DNA of 63,008 bases, filler included, from Atractiella rhizophila (Eukaryota): NCBI GenBank assembly GCA_021432655.1. It is 4 parts of 4 records of this genome, joined end to end, with 100 filler letters (N's around TTAATTAATTAA, not from the genome) between each part and the next. Parts side by side here need not be neighbours in the genome. Positions count along the whole stretch, not along the records: positions 25,784 to 51,376 come from MU271768.1; 3 more parts are not named here. One strand, given 5' to 3'. Made by a program: the position numbers and the translations under genes. Below the pieces are notes generated by a model. It was not told the DNA's origin. It saw only the letters and a list, made by a program, of their open reading frames with translations, and did no database searches. Numbering within the stretch: the first letter of the stretch is position 1; the number at the start of each line of letters is the position of its first letter. Positions 4,175 through 58,541 of this stretch are shown piece by piece.

Positions 4175-4629
4175 GGTTTGTCTCCTGCGCTCAGAGGGAA
4201 AGGCTCGCTCCGGTCAGCTTTTTAGTGCGCGTTTTGGCAAGTTTTTCAATGGCCGAGCAGAAAGGTTTCCTCAAGTTTCTTCTGACATTCAAATTTATTC
4301 AACCATCAATATCGCCAAGTGGGGGGACTTGGTGGGGAGGTTTATTGTTTGTGAGCAATTGTCTCCCCGAATAGGACTAATCTATCGGGTAGTCATCCCT
4401 GTTCAAACATTTTTTTGTTGTTCCCAACAATTGCCAAGTTGCTAAGTTTCCCGTTTACAGTCATTTGAGCTTTGGGATATCTTAGTTATCACCTACTGCA
4501 ATTTCTGTAGTTCTGGAGTTAACTGTCCTGGAAAGGCTGAAGAGAACTTGTCTGTCTCCTGTAAGCGCCTAAGTTCACGTCCACCCTTCTCACCCATTCT
4601 CCTGCGTAGGTCTAAATAAAATCGTTAGC

Positions 4630-5968
4630 ATGTCGATGGTTTTTAATGCTGCCGTTTTTGCTGGAGGGATAGCGGTAGGAGCAGCGAGTACAGTCTTGTT
4701 TTCGACGAGGAGAGAGAAGGAAATTGCTCCTCCAGCCCCTCCTCCAGTGCCTTCTCCGACGGTAGCTCCATTACCTAGCAGGGCCTCCCTTGCGCAAACT
4801 AGCGCGTTTGATGCTCTCACTACTTTTGGCGGTAATCCAGGTACTTTTCTCATTGACTTGGAGGGTGGCACTTCTCCAACTGCTTCGTCTAGGGCCGTTC
4901 CACGATCTCTTTGTCCGTCAAGCTTACATTACCTCCTACGACCGAGTACATCGACATCCAGCTTGGACGGCCGAGCATTTGACAGCTTCCTCGCTTCTCA
5001 GGACACCTGCCGTCTCCTCACCGGAGAATGTCTCTTCTTCCAGCGCCGCTGGAGACTTAATCGTTGGTACTGGTACACAACGTGCTGGAAGCCGTGAATC
5101 TAGTTTTTTTCGAGAGGATCCAGCTGTACCTGAGTTGTTCAGGGCAAAGTTGGCAGATTATGCCAAAAGTGGATATGATAGAGGACATATGGTACGCTCT
5201 CTGTCTTCGTTCTTTCAGGTCTTAAAAATTTTCTGATTTTCTGTGAGGTGTTTAGGTGCCTGCTGCAGACGCGAAACGCTCACAATCAGCAATGGACGAA
5301 ACATTTCTTCTCACCAACATCGCTCCTCAAGTCGGGGATGGGTTCAATCGCCACTACTGGGCTTGGGTGGAAGATTTCTGTCGTCGCCTGACGGGCAAGT
5401 TCTCGGACGTCTACGTCTTCACCATCCCTCTCTATCTCCCGCGCCGGGATCCAGACGGAAAGTTTCGGGTGACATACGAGGTGATAGCGAATTCGTCTAC
5501 CATGCCTCCCACGCCAAATGTCAGTGTACCGACCCACTTTGCGAAAGTCATTCTAGCAAATACTCCCTCAGTTGCTGGGGGAAAGGGGGGCGTTGCTCAA
5601 GTTGGACTCGGGTTAGCCAGCATTGGAGCTTTCGTGTTGCCAAACCAGCCTATTCCGGACCAGACACCGTTGAGAGCGTTTGAGGTGCCAGGTTCGTGTT
5701 TTTGCAGTCTCAATATTCCAGTTGATTAATCGTGAGAACGGATGACTAGTTGAAGCCGTAGAGAAAGCATCTGGTGTGCAGTTACCTTCTTCTGCTCGAT
5801 AACCCCTAACCATTGTCTTGGGACGCAGGCTTGACTTTGTTTTCGCCCCAAGTGAAAGCCCAAGCGAAAAAGCTTTGCGACACCACAGAATGCAACGTCG
5901 TTGTGCGACACTTCGACGATGCTGCTAAAAAGAACGATAGAAAGTCATTACCTCCGCCTTCACCATGA
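4630..5968 (+). CDS. NUC1: Mitochondrial DNA/RNA non-specific endonuclease (EndoG/Nuc1)
   Basis: YDRVHRHPAWTAEHLT, SGYDRGHM|VPAADAK, ETFLLTNIAPQVGDGFNRHYWA, VSVPTHFAKVIL. Confidence 0.95.
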
Positions 5969-19721: not shown

Positions 19722-22452
19722 ATGAGTTCACTGACTGGTACTAGGAAGGTGATGGATAAAGCGGGAGGGAAAAAGAAACGAGTCTGTACGTTCTAGCTTG
19801 GTGAATTGCAACCAGCTTACTTCCTCCCAAATCCGCGCAGGTGGACCTTGTCGGTTGGTCATACGTGTCTTTAGAAGCAACATAAATAACAGGGTTGTGC
19901 CACAGGAAGAGGAAATCGCGCTGCGACTGCTTGCTACCATGTAATTGCTTGTTCGACACCTAGGCGTATAAGATGCTGACTGGTCGAACAGGTTCTACGT
20001 GCGTTTCTCGAGGAAAGGCCGCTGAGGACCAGTGCTACTATCCGGAAGATCCTTATGACCTGGAAAAACGAAGAAGAGAGGTTGTTACTCTTCGTAGTGA
20101 ACTCGATCGTCTGTCCGTTTTCCCTTTCGGAGTATGTGCAGTTCTGAGAGTTCGATACAGTGAGCGAATAATCGTGAAGATGAAGAGAAGCAAAGAGGAA
20201 CAAAGACGTTACTCCATGAGTGCTGCCGGGCCCTCTTCGTTCATGAATGGAACTGGCTGGGTCCGTTCTCAGTTGATCTTACGAACTTTCGCTCACGAGA
20301 CGAGCAGTATGATTACACGCAAACAAATGAAAGCAATGGGACATCTCTCGAAGACTTGGTAACAGAACTGCAGTCCCTCATCCCATCTTTCTCACAGTCT
20401 ACCCTATTGGTCAACGTTTTCCTGGAGAAGATCAACCCGACCCACCAGCCCGTCGATGGCGAAATCTTCCTGCAACAGCATTTGAACTTCTGGAAACTGG
20501 AGTGGACGGAAGATCCTTCGTCCCTCGATCCTCATTGGTTGGCAGTTTTCTTCGCCGTTCTTGGTCTCGCACTCTTCACGGGAAATTCGGAGGATTATAA
20601 GAGCAACAGGAGAAAGGAGAAGTCGGACGACAGCGACGATGAGTCCGATGACGACATGCCTCTCGCTGGCGTCTATGAAGGTTCGTTTCCACCACACTCT
20701 AGCTTCTTCGGTCTGACTGGGACCAGTCGCTCTCGGTTGGATGCACGCTGCACATAAATTCGTCTACCTGGGGCTAGATTGTTCGTAGTCTCGCGCACGT
20801 CACATACGTAGGAACCTAATTTAAATGGTTAGTAAATGCAAGGAAAGGAGAGAAACCGTCCCTAGACTGTGAGCACTCTCTCATCAACTAGACTACAGCT
20901 CTGACCTTTCTCCACAGCTATTCGCGCTTTACTCCTCATCTCCACCTATGGAGTCTTGATTGCGTCTACCTCAAATGGCTTAGCTGATCCTAACGTTGTC
21001 AAGAGTTATATGGAGCTCGCTATCAACATTGCGAATGACCTCCACTTGGTAAGTTGGCGGCGACCTGTTCAAGCCAGATTAATAGCGCTGTTTCAGAGTC
21101 GAGAGCTCGAGGACAAGGAAGACGTAAACTATTCCGAAATAGGCACTCCTATCGAGGATACGCGGGTACTTGAAGACCGTCGCCGTTTGTGGTGGTGTTT
21201 GATTCGTTTGTCGAGCGAAATGCAGTGGATGCTGAAGGGCTGGTCAACCCTGGGTCGGTTTCTGATAGGTGGACCGAGGCTTCCCACGGCGGGAAGTGAG
21301 ACGGATCGTTTCTGGGTTCAAGGTCTCCATTTTAGAACCAATTGCGCCTACCTTGTCAGCGCTTCGTTTATTCGTCTGGTATCATCTGAGTCGGGAGCAC
21401 AGCTACGAAAAGCCCAGACCATGTCTTCCACTCGCCCAAATCGAACGTGCACCCTTCAACAAACCTTGATACTTGCGCAAGAGCTGCAAGGTGCTCGAGA
21501 CGCTATACCCAACGCTCTTTTGCCATCTTGGGATGGTGTTGGTAAGGTCAACTACGGTTCGACGGACCCAGTCATGCTGGTTGAGATCCAACATAACGTT
21601 CGCTACCTTTGCTTAGCGGTTGCAAAGATACTTCGTCCTCACAGGAATGCGGAGCTTTCGATCCGTGAGAAAATTATCTACCATTGTCGTACGACACTTT
21701 GCATCTTTGCAGAACAATACTGAGAATAAATCTGATAGGACTACTCATGTCCTTCGACAGCCGCTGGAAACATCCTTATTCTTGGGCTAGCCCTTCGTAT
21801 TCCACTGTATGCGTTCATCTGTTGGGAAGTATTTGGTCACAATTTTTTCTAGCTTCACTGCATGTTGACGCTGGGAGTGATGGTCTTCGAAATGGAGGAT
21901 CAGAAATCAGCTTTGGCAATGCAACTGCGATCCGAGATTCGTTCAGCAGCTTCAAAACTTTCAAAACGTCTTACCACGGATCCACATGTCAAGAAAGCGT
22001 ACAAAATCCTCGAATTCCTGATCTCGTCAGAGCACAAAAATGCACCCGGTCAGCCCAAACCGCACATCCAATGGACGAGTGCCTTGGAAGAGCTCATACC
22101 GCCTGCTCTGGCGAATGTGAAGTTCATTCCTCCTGCTCCTGTCGCAATCGCAGCTCATGACAATGAACCTTTCATGTCGCATGATGAGGGAATGGATCAG
22201 CACAAGCCTTGGGAGGCCGATCTCGTTCATTCGTTGTTCGGAATGCAGGGCCTTGGTCCAGATTTTGCAGGATCATTCGACACCCTGTCTTCCGATTTTT
22301 CTACGCAGGTCCAAAGCTTCTCTAGCCTATCTAGCAGTCTGGATGATCAATTTCCAAGCAATAATCGCAACTTTTCCGACAATGACGAACTTCTTAATTT
22401 CTTGAATAGCCTCCAGACTGGCCAACAACTTCCTGAGGGCACAAGTGCTTAG
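19722..22452 (+). CDS. Zn2Cys6 transcription factor with fungal TF middle homology region
   Basis: Microexon-spliced KKRVCGPCRKRKSRCDCLLPCSTCVSRG..DQCYYP; FLEKIN..PHWLAVFFAVLGLAL; EDRRRLWWCL. Confidence 0.85.
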
Positions 22453-25683: not shown

Positions 25684-25783
25684 NNNNNNNNNNNNNNNNN
25701 NNNNNNNNNNNNNNNNNNNNNNNNNNNTTAATTAATTAANNNNNNNNNNNNNNNNNNNNNNNNNNNNNNNNNNNNNNNNNNNN
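25684..25783. other. Artificial contig linker N44-TTAATTAATTAA-N44
   Basis: 100 nt with a six-frame stop cassette; genes on both sides are truncated. Confidence 0.97.
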
Positions 25784-26519: not shown

Positions 26520-27294
26520 AGTTGTTATATCTAGAGTGCGAGTGTTGCGACCTCGATGACCACAAGACAGTTCTTGCAACACGACTGCTCCTGTTCGATC
26601 TGTTATTACTTTGCATGAACTACCAAGATGACAAGGCATTAACTGGCAGTAAAGAGAGTTTGACGAGAGTGAAACCTAGGAATTGATTGCAGTTCTCTTG
26701 CATCCGAGTCTACCTTGCGTATTTTCTGAGATTCTGAGGAAGCTGTCGCCGCTCGCCTGTTTAGGGCCGCTTCATAGTCAATGAAGAGCTGTGACTGGAA
26801 TGCCGTTGTTTCCTCTCCGCCGGATAAATTGTAGGAAAAGATGCAGATTTGCTCGATTGCCGGTTAGAGATTCTCTCAAGTCGAGTTGTCTTCATGAGGG
26901 TATATTTGGTCTACGCCTGATGTGGGAGTAAGATTCATACCGCGGAAAAATACTCTTTGTTGAAATCTGCGAGTGACTTCATTGCTGAAATTAATGGAAG
27001 CCCAACGGAGAAGCTTCAAGCCCTGATCGGGTCGGCCAAAGCCGGTTCGAGTGGTGGCAGAAAGGTTGCACCTCGGAGTACTCTGGTCTTTCGAATCAGT
27101 GACAGTCGGGCATCCACAGGGGCTTTGCTCGCTAGACTTTGTTCGGGACGCAGAGAAGGTGATTTCAGCAACCGTATCACCTCATGAGCCGAAATCAGTT
27201 CTTCGGAGTATGGAGGATGTGAGAAATGGTTCTTGCGGTCCGTTAATGATTCTTTTCGTCCTTCCCGACGCTCTCACTTGAGTCTCTTTGCATT
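26520..27294. CDS. Hidden multi-exon hypothetical gene, readable only as the plain complement left-to-right
   Basis: Complement gives LTLTTLELLVFCQERCADEDKLDNNETYLMVLLFRNLT|intron with ACTAAC..TAG|AQMERIKDSK..IPAKYQLLLDTD..EYSALVKK..ELRET*; exon joins not fully resolved. Confidence 0.55.
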
Positions 27295-27368
27295 TGCATG
27301 ACTGGTGATTGTAGAGTCGTGTATATGTGTTACGCTTTCAAATTCTGTTAACTGTTACATTGATGCAT

Positions 27369-28175
27369 AATCCCTACAGGCAAATTCACTGGGTACTCGC
27401 GGACGTCAACTCCTCCCAGCAAAGGACATAGGTTTTCCGTTCTCCTGCCCTTCGCAAGGTACTCGTTGACTTTGCAATGGAGGAGGTAGACTATACCACT
27501 TCGGTTTAGTGTTCTGCCGTACGAGCCGCCGACGCAAACGCAGTACTTCCAACCGCTCCGTCCCCTGACTTCGCCACTGTACTAACCTCTACCGCGCCGC
27601 TCACGGGGACCTTCCAATTCTTTAACACTACTTCTCCCTCTTCACAGCGACGACACATGACTTCTTAAACTTCCCGAACCACCTCGCTTCTCTATAACAC
27701 TGGGCTGACCTTGATCACCGTACGCTATTCTGCCCTATCTTCCATACCCTATCCTCCCTGTTGTCGCCCCTGCACCCCCTTGCTCCCTCAGTTGTTGACC
27801 TAGCCGTACTGTCACAAGGTAGGTCGATCCGTTTGTTTGTAGTCTAGGTACCAACTCCAGTAAATCGAAGGTGGAGCGCTTGACTGGTAGTAGAAGCGAC
27901 CAACCTCTTTAAAAGACTCCTTGGAACGTTTGGAACCAACTGAAACCACCTCCCTTCTGCGTCAACTAAAGACGGTGTGACACTGGAGCAACACGGCTCA
28001 TAGCTTACGTCCTATTCGTCTGGATATGGTGCTTCAACTGTGTCCTTCCTATAACTGCTCGTGCTCGTCCTAGCGAGTGACCAAACGGTTGCGTGAACTA
28101 AAAGACCGTACCGTACTCGTCAACTCTGACCAAAGTTGTTCACGAATGAGAAAGAAACGTCTTCATTGTCCGGTA
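27369..28175. CDS. Hidden Zn2Cys6 transcription factor, readable only right-to-left without complementing
   Basis: From 28175 backwards: MACYFCKER|gtaagc..cag|KIKCVGKP|gtgagc..tag|VCLSCIRYSAQRGHSVAEINCVFP..Ser/Pro-rich..GHLNGHP*. TATATAA about 75 nt upstream in the same reading. Confidence 0.85.
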
Positions 28176-28805
28176 GGATTGGGTGTTGCTGAATACCTTA
28201 ACTAGGAGACTCGTTATCATTCCTCGCCTACACTAAGGCCTCGTTAGGAATATATTGCTGCTCGTCCGTCGAGCCTGATGAATTGAAAATCTTCTTCGTG
28301 TCCAATGTTATTCCAGGGGAATACGTTTCAACTAACTCAACGTCGGCGCTGTTAGACTAGCTTCAGCGCTCCTCCAACGCGAACGCGTGGAAGCTCCACC
28401 CCCTTTTGTGCAACCACCTGTCTTGTTAGATGCCTACATCGGGCGAAGATGACAGAAATGATATCGGTGGTGTTGGTCAAGACTCTACGGTACTTTCGCA
28501 GGTGTCGCGGTTTAGGGTCTTAGGGTCCTCTATCGTTGTAAGTGGAACGAGTCGAGCTTATAACACGTGATCAGAGTCGTCATCAGCGTCGGGGGTTTGG
28601 TTGAACTGGATTATTGGCGGGCCTATACCTCTGTGCAGCGTAGAGGTTCTGGTACCAATTAGTGCGTTTAGCGCTCGTGCGCAAAATAGTCGAACCTCCT
28701 CCTTTCGGAACGGTCATTTAGGTACCTGTCCTGACACAGCCTTCATGCAGGAGCATGCGACCGAATCGCGGACTGTTGGTTCTTCAAGCTCCTAGGAGTC
28801 TTTCG

Positions 28806-29061
28806 NNNNNNNNNNNNNNNNNNNNNNNNNNNNNNNNNNNNNNNNNNNNNNNNNNNNNNNNNNNNNNNNNNNNNNNNNNNNNNNNNNNNNNNNNNNNNNN
28901 NNNNNNNNNNNNNNNNNNNNNNNNNNNNNNNNNNNNNNNNNNNNNNNNNNNNNNNNNNNNNNNNNNNNNNNNNNNNNNNNNNNNNNNNNNNNNNNNNNNN
29001 NNNNNNNNNNNNNNNNNNNNNNNNNNNNNNNNNNNNNNNNNNNNNNNNNNNNNNNNNNNNN
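28806..29061. other. 256-N gap lacking the linker cassette
   Basis: Counted Ns; separates the two reversed blocks. Confidence 0.97.
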
Positions 29062-30349
29062 GTCTAGGCCACTGTACTCACTACTCTCCGCCAAAAAGTT
29101 TCTCTGCTCACTGCCACTGTACAGCTCCTAGAGAACTAGCTAAACGAAGAACACCTACATTCCTGCCTACAGCTCGCTAAGTAGTCACGCCTAATCATAG
29201 AACGGCTAGACACACACATTTGAACGTACTCAGATGGTGAAGCGTCTTTCCTCTCGTTGCCCCTGTTTGTACATTCAATAGCTACTGGCGAACTTGTCGT
29301 AGAGGCAATGAGGGGCCTCAGCGCGAGTTTCGGTCGTGAGACTTGAAAGGCGGTAAGGGTACGTAGTTGGAGGAGTGATAAGGCCACATTCGTATCAAAG
29401 GACATCGAAATACTCGGAGTAGCTGCTGGTTTGTCTGTTGCAAAGACCCTAGATTTTAAGGCAGGAACTCTAGTAAGAGATACCAGACGCCACAGCGCTT
29501 TTCTTGAGAGAACTTTAACAATCTTCAACCTAGCATTGTGCAGGAAGACTCTACTCGCCGGCAGAAGGGGCAATCGAGGGGTGTCACAACTCCTCCCTAT
29601 GGGCGCTACCTGTCTGTTCGAAGCTAAACAACTCGTTGCTCTCCTGCCCATCCACGTCACTTCTACTGCTAACGCCAACCTTTGGTCGCTATCATCAAGT
29701 CGTACTCTCGTCGTCGATGCTTACAGAAAGGCTCCGGTCAGCCCTCCCTCTGTTCCCACAACAACTCCTAACGCCGCCGGTGCTAACAGAAAACTATCAG
29801 CGCCTGGACCATAAAGCCCACGCACCCCATCTGGTCTCAGAACTAGCGAAGAAGTAGACCTCTCACAAACTCTCAGTACCTGCCTAGTTTACCTCCCTCG
29901 CACTACAGGAACAGACCACCAGGTGCCACATTCCGAGGTAGGAGTAGGAGACTACTAGGTCGTCTGGTAAGGCCTCCCAGCCTCTTTCGGTATCGGAAGG
30001 GGAAGGGAAAGACAGAGGGGCAGGTAAAAGGGAAGGGGAAGACGCAGGGTGAGGGTGGGTATGAAGGAGGTTTGCTGAGTGAGCGTAAGACTCTTCGTCG
30101 TTGGAGTCGTCGAACTCTCCGCGAGCCCAAGGTAGAAAACAAGTGGTGGTGTAACTGTAAGAGGAAAAGAAAGGGTGGTAGTAAGTGGACACGGGCGCGG
30201 GCTCGAACTCCCTCATCTCAGACAGCACTCCATGAGCGCCAGCCGACACCTCGGACAAACCGAAATGCTTACCGGAGGGAGAGGTTCCGAAGGTCCAGAA
30301 GCAAACGTTTTAGTTGCAGCAGACTCTTTAGTATCAGACTTCTAGGGTA
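29062..30349. CDS. MPH1: 5' half of Mph1/FANCM helicase, readable right-to-left from ATG at 30349
   Basis: MGSSDYDFSDD..VRDYQ..NTLVSLPTGLGKTF..NYYRWFP..APTRPLVAQQ..TPQTIENDL..LVVDEAHKATGNYAY..LALSATPG..VIDNLH|61-nt GT-AG intron|IGKILIRTDESLDI..SSLMSPDL. Confidence 0.97.
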
Positions 30350-30920
30350 GAGTCGCGCCTCCAGCCACCGCAGTTGCAGTTCCAAAACACCACCAAAGGA
30401 ACTCCTGTTGTGTATGGTGCGCATGCTGCATTCTTGTTACTGAGCTGGTACTTGGAAGCTCTCGGGTCGTCTTCCTCCTTTACTCCAAAGATATTTCATT
30501 CAAGACAACCCGACAACCTCCGTTGTTCCGCAATATGTAGACACTCAGAAACGTCATGACATAGAAGTTCAGTTCAACCCTGTAGTACTAAACGGTCACG
30601 TATTACAGATCTTCTTAATGTTACAAGACTTGCAGTCAACGCAGTGCCACAACAAAACCCTCTGCTCTTACATCCTCCTTCAAGTCTTCCATCTAAGTTC
30701 GTAAGAGTAATTGAAGGCGGAAAGGTACAACTAGTAGTAATGTTGACCTCCGAGACTCTTTGAAGGTCGTCCGAGTTCTACGTTGCACTAAGGAGCAATA
30801 CGTATCACTATGTGAGCGGGGAGCAAGGGGCATGGACGAGTTCCGCATAACTGTTGCTGCTCGTCTTCCGGCACCTCTCAGCTCCGACACAGAGGACCAC
30901 AACTTTTCCACGCTTTATTA
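29062..30920. other. Reversed (non-complemented) sequence block B; right edge 30920-30923
   Basis: Right-to-left reading encodes MPH1 motifs and joins in frame to forward sequence at 30921/30924. Confidence 0.97.
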
Positions 30921-33900
30921 GTGAACACACTCCTTGGTCGCGGTATCCTCCATTGCTCAAGCGATCCTGAACGTCTCGCACCATTCACGGTTCAACAAGC
31001 CCAAAGCGGCTGCTTCGGTCGTGGCGCTAACCCAGCCAAGAAAGCAGCCATTCGACCGCTCCAAAACCTTGGAGCCATGGCGAGAGCGATGGGGTATTTA
31101 TGCGATGAGAGTGTGAAGATGTCGTTAGCGACTTTGAAGGGACATTTTCTGGAGGGGAAGAATAGTGACCAGAAGCAGATGAAGGAAACGGCGGGGAAGA
31201 AGGAGTTTAAAGAGCTTATTTCTGATATGGAGGAATACGTGAAGGATCCTAATTATGCGGGTCACCCAAAGATGGAGAAACTTGTCGCGCTGGTACTGGA
31301 CCATCTCGCAAACTCGACAGAGGAGACCAAGATCATCGTCTTCGCCCAATTCCGGGATTGTGTCGATGAAATTGTTGACCTTCTCGAGAAGCAAAAGCCA
31401 TTGGTGAAACCGGCGAGATTCGTCGGACAGGGAACTGATAAGTCTGGGAAGGAGGGTATCAAGCAGAAGGATCAGAAGGAGGTGATTAAGAGGTTTAGGA
31501 GGGGTGAATTCAATACTCTTGTCGCCACGTCCATTGGAGAGGAAGGCCTCGATATTGGGGAAGTCGACCTCATTATCATCTATGAAGCGCAGAAGTCACC
31601 TGTGAGGATGGTGTGTTCCTCATTCCAATGAGTCTTATCACTCTAGCAAAGTTGACTGATGGATGAGTAGCTTCAAAGGATCGGACGAACCGGTCGTGCG
31701 CGTGATGGGCGAATTGTGGTGCTCATGACGAAGGGACGGGATGAAAGTAACTGGGCGAAAGCACAGGACAACTATCAGCATGTCCAAAATGCCATCACGT
31801 CAGGCAAACTCTTTGAACTCTATGGGGATGTTGCGCGTCTCATACCAGACAAAGTCAAGCCCGAACTCAAGGAGGAAGTTATTGTTGCCAGCGAATTTGA
31901 TCCGGCCATGGTAACGGTCACAGCGAAGAGCATGAAGGCTCCTAAGGGGGCAGTCGGGGCGAAGAAGAGCAGTAAGAGATCAGTACCACAGGGAACCATA
32001 ACTGGGTTTATGAGCGCGAAGGGGTTGTTAGAAGAGATGGAGGGGAGGTCAGGAGGGAAGAAGAGAAAGAGAGCTGAGATGGAGGACGACCCGAGGCTGA
32101 ATGGAGAGCACATGAAGGAGTTCGAGAAATGGTACATGCCTCTAAAGGGCAAAAAGCCGCCACCTTCCGATCGTGTCTCGAGAACGTTCGATGTGTCCAT
32201 GGACGCATCCAATCGAACATTCGTCATTTCTAACCATTCGAGGAGCTTTGAAGCCATACGCCGCATTTTTGGGGAGAGTGGACCAGGAACAAAAGCGGAG
32301 AGCTGGAAAGCGGCTTTGGCCGGACATTGGGATGCAGCTGAACCTTTTGTAGAGTATGTGGAGGAGAGGGAGGAGGAGGAAGAGGAGAGGAAGGGGAGGC
32401 TAGAGAGGAGGAGGAAGCATAATAGAGTGGAAGGGAGAAGATGGAAATACGTAAGACCTTATCTCGGAGAGAAGAAGAAGAAGGAAATCACCTCAGATGC
32501 GGATGCGGACAAGGATGGAATGGGCATTTTGGATGACGAGGAGGAGGAGCCAGCGGGGTGTATGGACAGAGGCAAAAGTAGTTCTGGGTTTGGAAAACAC
32601 GCTGGCAAGCAATATGTCAATCCGTTCAAGATGCCTGCAATTCAGGAGAAAGACGAGTCGACGGATTGCGAACTACCCGATTTTGGCGGATCAAAATCCA
32701 TGCTTTCTATCTCAGTTTCTCCTCCAGGACGTCGAACTCCCAGTGAACAGCGTAACAACACCAGGCGGAATGACATTATCGTCCTTGACTCCCCTCCTCC
32801 AACTCCCGAAGCAATCAAAGGTCTCACAATGGATCTTGACCCCGACGGAGACGAAGAGGATGGGGAAGACCAATTTCGCGACCAAATGACTGGGATTCAC
32901 CCCTTTGGCCATTTCGATTCTTCCCCAATGCCTAGGGGAGCCGACGAACTCTCCCGACCAGTCAGCCCTACACAGTCCGTGTACCTTTCTCCTGTTTCAA
33001 AAGCAGGAAAGCGCTCGCGATCGCTACAGAACTCTGCAGAAAGCAGGAAAAAGCGAAAGCTGCCAGAGTCAATGGATATCGAGGAAGTATTCCTGGCGCA
33101 AGGTTCGGCCATCCGACCTGCTGACGCTGAACAAATTGCATCAGTGGATCCTTTGATACCTGCAGACACGATCCCGATTGAAGTTGATAAAGGCTCCCCC
33201 CCACCAGTATTCAAGGTCCCTTCCGTCCCTAGATCTGTCAAGACACCAAATCACGGCAAATATATGACATTCTCGCAAGGGTCGATGGGCTTTGATGACG
33301 ATTTCGACGTGGATGATCTCGGCGATTCAATCCTGCAACAGCTAGATCGCAGTGACACTCGACTGGCGGCGACATCGACCTCTGGCAGCAGAAAACTGAT
33401 GAGGACACCACTTTCCGCAGTTGATGGACGAGGGCAACAACCACTCTCCGTTAAATCCATTAATTCTCCTCTCGATTTCTCACAACCTGTCATTTCCCTT
33501 CGCCGGACATCGATACACTCTCTCCAAACGCAGTCACCATCCTTCGAACTCTCTCAGCCTGTTATTACACATAGGAGGCAGAGGATTCCGCTTCAAGAAG
33601 AAGTGGAGGGAGCAGACTCCTCACCTGGAACATCCCATCAGGAGGCAGTGAAAGTGTTCCGCCTGAGGAAAGCTCGCAGTAATTCTCCCTCCTCTTCGGC
33701 TGCAGTTTCTGTCATCGAAAAGGGGAAGGGGAGGCAGCGGCAGAAGCCGAAGCGCACGAGGGAGGAGAAGGAGAGGTTGAGAAGGAAGCTAGAGAGAGCA
33801 ATGATGGATATGGAAGCAGTGGATTCAGACGTGGACGCTGGAATTCTCCATAGCTCAGACGATGACGATGCAGCAGACGTCAATGAAGGTTCCTCAGATA

Positions 33901-34217
33901 TGGAGTTCATCGATAGGTCACTCGTAACTGACGGTTCGATGAGCATCTATCGTAAGTCGACTTGTTTTCACTAAGGACATAGAGCTGATGCTGCTAAAGG
34001 GAGAAGTCTTGCAACCCAAGTGCCTGGTTTCCAGCCCATGTTTCGCGGGCGAGCCTTCGCTCACGGTGATATTGCGGCTCATTTAGCGAGAAGACCTGTT
34101 CCCGTTACACCGGGGGATAAAGATGCGAGCACTGATCAATATTCGGTTGGATCTTTCGTTGTAGACGATGACGAGGACCTCCAGTTTGAGAGCTCAAGTC
34201 CATCAAGACGACGATAG
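30921..34217 (+). CDS. MPH1: 3' half of Mph1/FANCM DEAH DNA helicase
   Basis: GHPKMEKL, IIVFAQFRDCV, FVGQG, NTLVATSIGEEGLDIGEVDLII, SPVRM|LQRIGRTGRARDG; long disordered C-terminus ending YSVGSFVVDDDE. Confidence 0.95.
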
Positions 34218-37893: not shown

Positions 37894-38109
37894 TCCCTTT
37901 TCTTCTCAGTTTCAGTTCCAGTGTTTGTGTGGTGATTGTTGTGGTGAAAGGAGGATGGGAAGCGCGTTCGTGTTGTTGGATGGAAGGCGCGAAATGCCAA
38001 CTCTGTCGCAGCAAACGACAAAACGACGAATTATTTATCCGGCACATTGTTAGCTGCAACCTGTATGTCACTCCTCCACTCTGCCTGTCTCTCACTAATA
38101 CTACTACAG

Positions 38110-40020
38110 ATGTCACTGTCTCCCCACGAGCCGCCGACTGCGACCGTCGACTCCTCCCCACCCATCACCTTCTCCCCCGCCGCCTCCAAGGAGCACGACG
38201 ACTGGTTCTCCGCCCGGCAGGAGCGCATCCTATCAGGCGAGCGGGAGCGCCTAGGCCGCGCGCTGAGTGCCGTCGTCCAGTCTAACCTCGACGAGCGTTA
38301 CAACCTGTCCTCCATCCGCTTCCTCGGACTGGAGAAGACGCGCGCGTCGTTCTTGCAGAAGGCATTGGAGGATGCGCTCCGGAAACATCGGGAAATTGGG
38401 GACCAGGGACGGTTGCGCGACGTGCTTAAGACGGTGAAGGACGTCACGAGCAAGTTGGAGGGGTTTGGCATCTTTGAACAGATTGCGCCGTCGGTGGAAC
38501 ATGCTGAGGCGGGGTTGGGTGGTGCGAGGGACTTGGATGTGGTGTTTCATGTGAAGGAGGCGGCGAGGAAGTATCTCAAGACGTCGACTGACGTCGGCGA
38601 TGGAGAGGGAAGTGTGCAGGCTTTGGGAAGGGTGAGGAATGTGTTTGGAGGCGCGGAGACGGTGGAGGGTGCAATGACTTTTGGTTCTCGCACGAGGAGT
38701 GCATTCCAGGTGCGTTTCCATCTTATTTCGTGTTGGGATTTAGAAGGAAGAGAGATTGATAAAATTTGCGTGTGGAATAGTTGCGCTTCGACTCTCCCGT
38801 TTTTGCCGATCCTGACAAGAGAATTGATACCACCCTGTACGCGAGCGATACGGACCTGTCTCACTTTGCGAGCTGCACAGAGAGGTTGCACGGCTTCCAG
38901 GGCAGATTTAGGGTGCGTCTCTGCAAATCTCTATAGAGGATCAGAAAGAGTGATGAGGGAGAAGACAGTGTCTCCGCTAGGATATCACGAACTTTCATAT
39001 GATGCCGTCCTGAGGAGAATTTGCGATTTGGGACCCAGAGCGAGCATGAGGTTTGTTTGCTTTCTCCTGTCATCTCTGAAAAGGCACATAAAATAATGCT
39101 CCATAGTATGCGTGAATCTGCGGGTACAACAACCAAGTCGGCGGTTTCGCATACTGTCACCTCAGATACTAGGGAGGACGTCTTTGAGCCCTCAAAAGGT
39201 GGAATGTATTACAAGCTTACCCAGGCACGTCCTTCCTTCCTGTTTTTGCTCTCTTCGCCCTGTTAAAACTTATCCTTAAACGACTGTAGGAACTTGCTGG
39301 TCTCGGAGGAGACGCGAAACACATAAAAGGGACGGTAGACGTCCAAAAGTCACTCCCACTCTCATCCGCCGCTGTGAGCCTCTCCGTCTCCTTCTTTAGA
39401 TTTGAAAAATACCGATCTGAAAACAACAGACGCTTTCGCTAGGCTTCCGCTCAGGACTCCTCTATACCCTCTCCCCCTCACCCTCCCTCTTCTCTGACCG
39501 CTTCCACCTCGGCGGCCCTTCAAGCGTACGGATGTTTAAGCTCAACACCTTAGGGCCGAAAGACTATGGTACGTTCCCTTTCCCCTTCGATGGGCCGGCG
39601 ATAGGGCACTCAGGTTGTTGGGTCGGTCGGTTGTAGAGGACTGGGTTGGAGGAGACGCCTTCTGGGCAGCCGGCGCGAGCTTATACGCCCCCATTCCGAA
39701 AAGGACGCACTGGCCCCTCCTCCTCCACGGCTTCGTGAACGCAGGTCGCTTGGTAGCTGTCGATCGGAGTGCGTATCTCTTTCTCCTCCTCTTTCCGCGA
39801 CTACGTGTTTTGACATCTACATTGGAATGTAGAAGCGCCGCTCAGCGACTCTTTAAGAGACCTCCTCAACCCACCATCGACCTCTGTCGGCCTCGGATTA
39901 CTCTATCGCTTCTCCATTGTTCGTCTGGAGGTCAATTTGGGAGTGCCATTGGTCGCAAGTAGAGGGGATGGTACGAGGAAAGGCCTGCAATTGGGAGTGG
40001 GGATGAGCTTCCTTTCTTGA
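38110..40020 (+). CDS. SAM50: Mitochondrial outer-membrane SAM complex beta-barrel Sam50
   Basis: POTRA GLEKTRASFL..LEGFGIF, STDVGDGEGS..RNVFGGAET, ELAGLGGD, SDRFHLGGPSSVRMF, GGDAFWAAG, RLEVNLGVPL..GLQLGVGMSFLS*. Confidence 0.93.
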
Positions 40021-40534: not shown

Positions 40535-41685
40535 TTAAAGCGTCTTGCTAACGGACGCCACGCTTTGTCCAGCGGCCTTTGCCCTCTTCGCAAGTTTGGC
40601 AACACCTGTTTCGCCATTTGATCAGTCCAAGGTCGGCAAAACCCAGAGGGATATATACTCTTGTTACCACGAACTCCACCTCCCCAGTGCCTTCTGGCAT
40701 CTTCGTACTTCTCGAGATAGTTCGATTTGGCAGCAGAAACGAGTTTCGAGAGTTCGCTCTGGTCTTCTGAGCGGACCTCTGACACGACGGCAATGGCGGC
40801 AGTCTTCTTGTGAACCAGTGTACCGAGACGCGCTTTACCTACTCGCGTCCATCAGACTAATGTTCATCACCAAGATGTGCACAAACCCTTGACGATAACA
40901 TAGGGGACACCCATCTTTCGGCAGAGAGCAGGGACGAAAATAACGAGCTCGATGGGGTCGACATCGTCGGCAATGACCACAAGCTGGGCTTTCTTGGCTT
41001 CAATGAGAGCGACGCAGTGGTTAAGACCGTATTTAACGTAGATGGGCCTGCAAATCGCTGACTCAGAACCTACAGCCAGATAAAGGAACAGAGAAACATT
41101 ACTTCTTAGTCTCCTCAGGCTTTTTGCCCTCAGCAACGGCAGCAGCCTGATCCGCAAGCCTCTTCTTCTTCTCTTGGACGGTCTCGGGCTTGTACTTGTT
41201 GAGGAGTCTGAAGAGTTGGGTAGCAGTGTTCTTGTCGAGCGTGTTGGAGAATTGGGCGATGGCGGGAGGAACCTTCAGACGCTGGCGAAGAATGACCTTC
41301 TGCCTCTGCAGGCGAACGTACTCGGGCCATTTGACGAATCGAGTGAGGTCCCGAGTGGGCTGGATGGATTGACCTGAGCACCAACGCCAAATCTCGAGTC
41401 AGCGGACTGCACTGTGGAACGGCACACTGAGGGAAGAAGAGAAGATAGCAAGGGAGGAACGATACCCACCGATTCCGAAATTCTTAGGCCTCTTTTCAAG
41501 AAGAGGGTTCTTCTCAGACCTAGACTGCTTCTTCTTCGCTCCACCGAGGGGAGCGGGAGCAGGCTTCTTGGATTTTCCTTTGGGAGGCTAATGGGGTCAT
41601 TGAGAAAGAATCAGTATTCTATTCTCTAAGGCACATCCTTTGACGGATGGCCACCCATGTACTGAAAAGTCGTGCCACGCACCAT
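40535..41685 (-). CDS. RPL8: 60S ribosomal protein eL8 (L7a/L8)
   Basis: [80 protein letters not shown]. Confidence 0.97.
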
Positions 41686-51376: not shown

Positions 51377-51476
51377 NNNNNNNNNNNNNNNNNNNNNNNN
51401 NNNNNNNNNNNNNNNNNNNNTTAATTAATTAANNNNNNNNNNNNNNNNNNNNNNNNNNNNNNNNNNNNNNNNNNNN
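51377..51476. other. Artificial contig linker N44-TTAATTAATTAA-N44
   Basis: Same cassette as 25684. Confidence 0.97.
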
Positions 51477-58441: not shown

Positions 58442-58541
58442 NNNNNNNNNNNNNNNNNNNNNNNNNNNNNNNNNNNNNNNNNNNNTTAATTAATTAANNN
58501 NNNNNNNNNNNNNNNNNNNNNNNNNNNNNNNNNNNNNNNNN
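58442..58541. other. Artificial contig linker N44-TTAATTAATTAA-N44
   Basis: Same cassette. Confidence 0.97.

Follow-up and report, generated by a model that had tools for sequence, protein, structure and literature searches.

Orientation errors are familiar from genome assemblies in the form of misoriented contigs and wrongly oriented gap fills, and the locus described here resembles them in lying at a gap edge, in being absent from the organism's reads and in breaking a gene model. In the usual misorientation, the affected sequence is written as its reverse complement and the gene remains readable on the other strand. By contrast, the letters are here reversed without being complemented, and because of this neither strand codes and similarity searches are blind to the content, such blocks evading BLAST-type checks on both strands. 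Errors of the reversed, uncomplemented kind are occasionally met in databases, and a literature search for them found no description. PMC2569925, considered as a candidate account of such errors, was set aside as irrelevant, since the passage in question concerns genetic complementation; searches of the available literature for the assembly method of this genome gave no account of it.

The gene affected has its closest relatives in the Mph1/FANCM/Hef family of SF2 helicases, with which it shares motifs I, Ia, II (DEAH) and III in the turned-back reading, Helicase_C in the forward part, and a continuous alignment to full-length fungal proteins at 37-52% identity. The turned-back gene showed no unusual traits within this family, and conservation is poor in its long C-terminal tail, as it is in the homologues. 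For some of the full-length fungal homologues, the source gives the name ATP-dependent DNA helicase mph1.

The window, by which we mean the whole stretch of Atractiella rhizophila DNA that was analysed (63,008 nt), contains two blocks in which the letters run backwards, one on either side of a scaffold gap. The explanation that we consider highly probable is a software artefact in the scaffold, consisting of two reversed blocks at the gap edges and an intact gene; the DNA of the organism itself would not have this property.

The right block and the helicase gene

The right block (29062-30923, 1862 nt) belongs to neither strand as written, its letters running from right to left, uncomplemented; it is bordered to the left by the gap and to the right by sequence that is correctly written. 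It is the block for which coding content was shown to be legible in reversed order and on neither normal strand. Reversed without complementing, it encodes, in 409 codons, the motor part of a helicase of the Mph1/FANCM type, namely its N-terminal half, in agreement with the first-pass annotation, which had described a backwards, uncomplemented stretch with about 400 codons from 30349, five sequence motifs and a GT-AG intron, all of which were located. In the translation of the reversed block, the ATG at 30349→30347 serves as start codon, and upstream of it an in-frame stop ends at 30566, with no further Met in between. The 574 nt at 30350-30923, on neither strand as written, form the 5' flank of the gene, and in true order they lie between the gap and this ATG.

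Exon 1 (29270-30349, read 30349→29270; 360 codons) holds, in the reversed reading, PTGLGKT (29743→29723), APTRPLVAQQ (29656→29627), TPQT (29494→29483), DEAH (29422→29411) and SAT (29326→29318). The first, second, fourth and fifth of these correspond to motifs I, Ia, II and III of the helicases, respectively, and the Walker A (motif I), DEAH (II) and SAT (III) sequences are ordered as in the N-terminal RecA-like lobe. Intron 1 (29209-29269, read 29269→29209; 61 nt, GT..AG) takes the reading from frame 1 to frame 2, and the homologue alignments are interrupted there. The first 49 codons of exon 2 (29062-29208, read 29208→29062) are in frame with 30924, the last codon ending on 29062 and the frame resuming at 30924 (N-T-L-L-G-R-G).

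From this joint onward the gene is correctly written. The remainder of exon 2 (30924-31609, + strand) contains the start of Helicase_C (PF00271), which was detected by Pfam at residues 117-228 of the translated 30924-31631 (66.3 bits, the cut-off being 23.5; E 3.6e-18) and is the sole domain in the forward reading from 30924. Intron 2 (31610-31669, + strand; 60 nt, GT..AG) is missing both from the public gene model and from a 1054-nt contig of sequencing run X3. The remaining coding part (31670-34190, + strand) has an open frame to a stop at 33972-33974; a further intron is likely within it, because the C-terminal ends of the homologues align further on, at 33885-34190. Of the poorly conserved tail, only the last 60-140 residues of the homologues align, at 33741-34190.

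Comparison with homologues gave the same division of the gene. In the window as written, on both strands, all 40 full-length homologues match only at 30831-34190 (+ strand), and the N-terminal motor halves of these 40 proteins have no match anywhere. This bears out the earlier observation that the forward reading starts mid-helicase and that motifs I-III are absent from both strands. When the whole window is letter-reversed, all 72 HSPs of the 40 homologues fall inside 29065-30010, and the reversed right block aligns with homologues at 45-52% identity, the matches covering ~200-260 residues and their linked E-values running from 1e-133 to 5e-148; the check put forward with the first-pass annotation, a search of the reversed translation for Mph1/FANCM similarity, was thus answered positively. 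With the block turned back, an N-terminal match was gained in 7/7 full-length homologues tested (for P0002, at residues 238-435), and single HSPs span 30923/30924 (e.g. residues 431-867 of P0002), so that the in-frame join claimed earlier from 29062 to 30924 also holds at the level of alignments. The two lobes are collinear in each of the seven, which align from about residue 1-332 through about 602-936. The precomputed Pfam domains of the full-length homologues are PF00270, PF04851 and PF00271. An independent protein that crosses the joint was also sought: the 62 residues encoded at 30924-31109 were used as query, and none of 55 candidates at E <= 1e-5 was a longer protein.

Judged by its sequence, the gene product is an Mph1/FANCM/Hef-type SF2 helicase, with a predicted helicase activity. 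In the turned-back sequence, the gene is very probably intact and an ordinary member of this type, a judgement that we make jointly with that on the artefact explanation as a whole.

The left block, the gap and sequence polarity

The scaffold gap (28806-29061, 256 N, no strand) lies between the two reversed blocks. The window has no other true gap, and both edges of this one (2/2) carry reversed blocks. The left block (27298-28805, 1508 nt), whose right end adjoins the gap, likewise belongs to neither strand as written and runs from right to left, uncomplemented. It was missed in the first-pass annotation, and it is reversed in the same manner as the right block. Its reversed reading contains a 217-codon open frame at 27372-28022; a search for tRNA in this block, both as written and turned back, found none.

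Both blocks were also examined by a composition test that is independent of coding, in which a 5-mer polarity score was trained on the rest of the window and block means were compared with those of random blocks. The left block has a mean polarity of -0.101; random blocks average +0.141 (sd 0.042), and 0/1650 of them score at or below zero; the mean of the right block is -0.126, against about +0.14 (sd 0.04), with 0/1584 random blocks at or below zero. The sign of the score flips over exactly the span of the blocks, whose limits the test thereby recovers, with change points at 27389 and 30942, and in the scan z lies between -2.7 and -4.8 in every window starting from 27251 to 30501.

Outside the two blocks, six scan windows were flagged, namely 4501-5000 (z -3.0), 39251-39750 (z -3.3), and 4751-5250, 19751-20250, 20751-21250 and 39001-39500 (all z -2.2 to -2.3), and a codon-usage scan gave weak flags at 4351-4950, 39151-39450 and 40951-41250. 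The two regions with the strongest flags were considered as additional reversed blocks, and parts of them proved to code normally in the forward direction. Near 4501-5250, this holds for 4892-5191 (Endonuclease_NS, E 2e-11), and near 39001-39750, for 39421-39633, which gives a forward Omp85 match (E 4e-5; with 23.7 bits it falls slightly short of the 24-bit cut-off); 4351-4891 and 39151-39420 were judged by inspection of the sequence.

The public gene model and contigs from sequencing runs

The best database protein (P0001; source name Atractiella rhizophila) is 99% identical and carries Helicase_C only, with 560 aa against the roughly 1,400 or more encoded by the gene. It maps from 31077 onward, that is, from 153 nt inside the correctly written part, and the motor half is missing. 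The protein lies on a 25593-nt contig, which has the same nucleotide count as the window part 25784-51376. Because a gene model on a contig of equal size starts only at 31077, without the motor half, the error is most likely located in the deposited scaffold.

The window itself has been processed, at least four contigs having been concatenated with artificial linkers (44 N + TTAATTAATTAA + 44 N, at 25684-25783, 51377-51476 and 58442-58541) that are unlike the 256-N gap, and the reversal might have been introduced at this stage, after deposit, by concatenation, masking or as a deliberate control, in which case the public scaffold would be correct. We regard this as improbable, since P0001 begins as if the N-terminal half had already been unreadable in the deposit, and since the position of the blocks, exactly on both edges of the only real gap, fits an assembler better than a random manipulation.

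The DNA of the organism can be compared with the scaffold through three public sequencing runs (X1, X2 and X3, representing at most three samples), which were examined as contigs, with 30 loose letters per end. The contigs of all three runs align up to 27297 and from 30924 (X2 also at 30922) and then diverge from the window. At the left limit, the loose letters are those of the reversed string of 27298-28805, i.e. from 28805 backwards (30/30 identical); at the right limit, 29/30 agree with 29062-30923 read backwards, and X2 also shows a second form, for which the agreement is 23/23. The one mismatch among the 30 letters before 30924 fits a second haplotype that is present all along the stretch. 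Read-based confirmation thus covers 30 letters per block end, out of 1508 and 1862 nt. Because the contigs that leave the window continue with the reversed neighbouring blocks, the left block is reversed too, and each block is reversed in place. These contigs support the earlier proposal that assembly or data processing produced an artefact and that the native gene is intact. Depth is zero in X1-X3 in 19/19 bins wholly within 27387-30752; this was not counted as evidence, since a part without cover proves nothing, and the loose ends serve as the evidence instead. No contig of a further run, X4, was placed on the window.

Run X3 looks RNA-derived, because its 1054-nt contig lacks intron 31610-31669, and a separate X3 contig extends 1133 letters ahead of 30924; if the run is indeed RNA-derived, the gene appears to be transcribed across the joint.

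The contigs also bear on the rival view that the genome was truly rearranged, by an inversion or by breakage of the gene, and that the organism was left with a truncated helicase gene. Such a change would agree with the forward frame as written, which starts mid-helicase, and with the truncated public model. Yet a genomic inversion gives a reverse complement, and the N-terminal homologue halves match neither strand as written; DNA has chemical polarity, and we know of no process that writes a strand backwards. With the correct order present at both limits in contigs of three runs, and with one X3 contig lacking the intron and another reaching upstream of the joint, a rearrangement is very unlikely indeed. 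A mere chance likeness of the reversed reading to a helicase has a negligible probability: open frames of 150-230 codons do arise in reversed and complement-only readings of normal sequence in this G+C-rich window (7 others in the reversed and 7 in the complement-only reading), but the reading found here has linked E-values of 1e-133 or below at 45-52% identity, with the canonical motifs all in order, 72/72 HSPs in one interval and an in-frame join at 30924.

Proposed origin of the reversed blocks and its consequences

The software artefact would consist in 27298-28805 and 29062-30923 each having been written in place in reversed letter order, uncomplemented. The true order would be 27297, the reverse of 27298-28805, the gap, the reverse of 29062-30923, and 30924. 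A string of this kind equals the one obtained when the opposite strand is complemented and left unreversed, and the latter is the likelier programming slip. The most likely origin is a gap-closing step, since both reversed blocks touch the window's only true gap while their outer limits are unmarked. In such a scheme, a gap-closing or contig-extension step would have grown sequence from both sides into an original gap of ~3.6 kb, left 256 N in its middle and dealt wrongly with the orientation of the pieces it had added. The fault may be systematic, with many partly closed gaps in this assembly flanked by backwards blocks, and possibly gaps in other assemblies made with the same software; we lean slightly against this broader reading. 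If it were systematic, gene models would be silently truncated or deleted, unseen by ordinary similarity searches.

The reversed blocks have no biological significance, and the practical value of recognizing them is modest but real. The public scaffold most likely holds ~3.4 kb of backwards sequence, and analyses that trust the region inherit the error, including gene-family counts, statements on the presence or absence of DNA-repair genes, and language-model training. The 5-mer polarity score detected both blocks from composition alone, and it could serve to screen the gap edges of whole assemblies.

The helicase locus with its 5' block turned back

The helicase locus and the reversed blocks lie in the contig at 25784-51376 (25593 nt), one of at least four contigs chained by three identical artificial linkers (25684-25783, 51377-51476 and 58442-58541; each 44 N, TTAATTAATTAA and 44 N), so that genes on either side of a linker need not adjoin in the genome. 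The sole true gap of the whole window, 256 N at 28806-29061, is found inside this contig, with the left block (27298-28805, 1508 nt) ending at one edge and the right block (29062-30923, 1862 nt) starting on the base directly after the other. As written, translation from 30924 on the + strand contains Helicase_C only (PF00271, E 3.6e-18), in a frame that passes a short intron and then stays open to 33974; the forward MPH1 frame does begin mid-helicase. When the letter order of the right block is turned back without complementing, an ATG at 30349 to 30347 opens 360 codons that include PTGLGKT, APTRPLVAQQ, TPQT, DEAH and SAT, followed by a 61-nt GT..AG intron (29269 to 29209) and 49 further codons, the last ending exactly on 29062 and in frame with 30924. 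The right-to-left reading proposed in the first-pass annotation, including its junction with the forward frame, was thereby recovered in full. The longest open frame obtained from reversed or complement-only reading of normal window sequence is 230 codons, versus 460 here.

The corrected gene model comprises exon 1 (30349 to 29270, turned back), intron 1, exon 2 (29208 to 29062 turned back, then 30924-31609 on the + strand), intron 2 (31610-31669, + strand, GT..AG) and the remainder from 31670, with the C-terminal ends of homologues aligning at 33885-34190. It is predicted to encode an ordinary Mph1/FANCM/Hef-type SF2 helicase, and no unusual features were seen in it.

Homology supports this model on both sides of the joint. 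Of 120 proteins retrieved with the forward portion of the helicase as query, 40 full-length sequences (>1000 aa) were used for tblastn. All 40 match the window as written, exclusively on the + strand at 30831-34190 (49 HSPs; both strands searched), and all 40 match the letter-reversed window, exclusively at 29065-30010 (72 HSPs), bearing out the predicted similarity of the reversed translation to Mph1/FANCM. In a copy of the contig with the right block turned back, each of seven full-length homologues gained an N-terminal match at 45-52% identity (residues 238-435 for P0002, a full-length fungal homologue), single HSPs span 30923/30924 (e.g. P0002 residues 431-867), and linked E-values are 1e-133 to 5e-148. 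The native MPH1 is intact in this order, in line with the original proposal.

Sequencing-run contigs at the block limits

Six public sequencing runs contain some of the forward sequence, and four (X1 to X4) were compared with 27200-32785, yielding contigs from X1, X2 and X3 and none from X4. X1, X2 and X3 each have a contig that matches through 27297 and continues in letters unlike the window, and a contig that matches from 30924 with unlike letters ahead of it. Behind 27297, all 30 of the loose letters shown are those of the reversed 27298-28805; ahead of 30924, 29 of the 30 agree with the end of the reversed 29062-30923, the single mismatch being consistent with a second haplotype visible throughout the forward part. 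A second form in X2 ahead of the right joint, where the alignment reaches two letters further, matches the reversed right block at 23/23 places. Contig cover is absent between the two limits on the window as written, which carries no weight as evidence.

Since the loose letters on both sides are those of the reversed neighbouring blocks, there are two reversed blocks, one per gap edge, each reversed in place and separately rather than the two together. Read correctly, the sequence passes from 27297 through reverse(27298-28805), the gap and reverse(29062-30923) to 30924. The reversed blocks are no real feature of the genome; the original observation is confirmed, its artefact interpretation is supported by the departure of the run contigs at both limits, and the second block extends it.

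X3 may be RNA-derived, because one of its contigs skips 31610-31669, with GT..AG ends. A different X3 contig carries 1133 letters ahead of 30924, and together these contigs weakly suggest transcription of the helicase gene across the 30923/30924 joint. On the left, an X3 contig runs 1300 letters past 27297, into sequence misrepresented by the left block. Turned back, the left block contains an open frame of 217 codons, rich in Pro and Ser (27372-28022, right to left), at most a candidate gene. Within 30960-32785, X1 and X2 each show two forms. One is identical to the window; the other departs from it at some 3-7% of positions (over 169 nt, for example, the two have 0 and 12 differences) and has a 3-nt insertion after 32627. 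The pattern resembles that of two haplotypes or two nuclei, or of a second strain.

Origin of the reversal

The best database match, P0001 (99% identical, 560 aa), is the public gene model of this locus in Atractiella rhizophila, located on a public contig of 25593 nt, equal in size to the window contig. It maps from 31077 onward and contains Helicase_C only; the N-terminal half would have been open to an annotator working from correct sequence, so the deposited scaffold most likely already contains the reversed block, and an origin of the reversal after deposit is improbable. P0001 is also short at its C-terminal end, where it leaves the long frame at about 32783 and stops 11 residues later.

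Because both blocks touch the sole gap, their outer limits are unmarked and P0001 is truncated, the error most likely arose in a gap-closing or extension step, which may have filled an original gap of some 3.6 kb with 1508 and 1862 nt and put both added pieces in with the wrong orientation. One missing operation would suffice, since reversing a strand gives the same string as complementing its partner and leaving that unreversed. The added sequence is of consensus quality, as the reversed reading holds frame over 360 and 49 codons. Literature searches turned up no account of such an error, nor of how the assembly was made. The value of the finding is low and practical, namely that a public scaffold is probably defective and a public protein at this locus is truncated.

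A 5-mer polarity score

A polarity score that uses neither genes nor reads offers a cheap screen for the same fault elsewhere. It compares how often each 5-mer and its letter-reversed form occur, summing the log ratios of the two counts, and its training set was the remainder of the window, both strands counted together. Outside the blocks it is +70 (sd 33; 235 windows of 500 nt), while all 500-nt windows starting from 27251 to 30501 are negative (z -2.7 to -4.8). With the test region excluded from training, per-base means are -0.101 (left) and -0.126 (right) versus +0.14 (sd 0.04), and all 1650 and all 1584 random blocks of equal sizes score above zero. Turning points of the cumulative score, 27389 and 30942, lie 91 and 19 nt from the limits set by the read-derived contigs.

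No sustained run of negative windows was found elsewhere in the window, where six windows score low. In the strongest two low-scoring regions, parts encode recognisable domains in the normal forward direction (Endonuclease_NS at 4892-5191, E 2e-11; Omp85 at 39421-39633, E 4e-5, 23.7 bits, slightly below cut-off), and weaker ones lie at 19751-21250. The first belongs to a forward gene at 4630-5191 for a DNA/RNA non-specific endonuclease with a DRGH-type stretch, whose CT-rich coding sequence makes its score falsely low. The second lies in a forward gene at 37948-39636 with an Omp85-superfamily match and several short introns, which looks like a mitochondrial SAM50-type protein, the SAM50 name being our own reading of the sequence.
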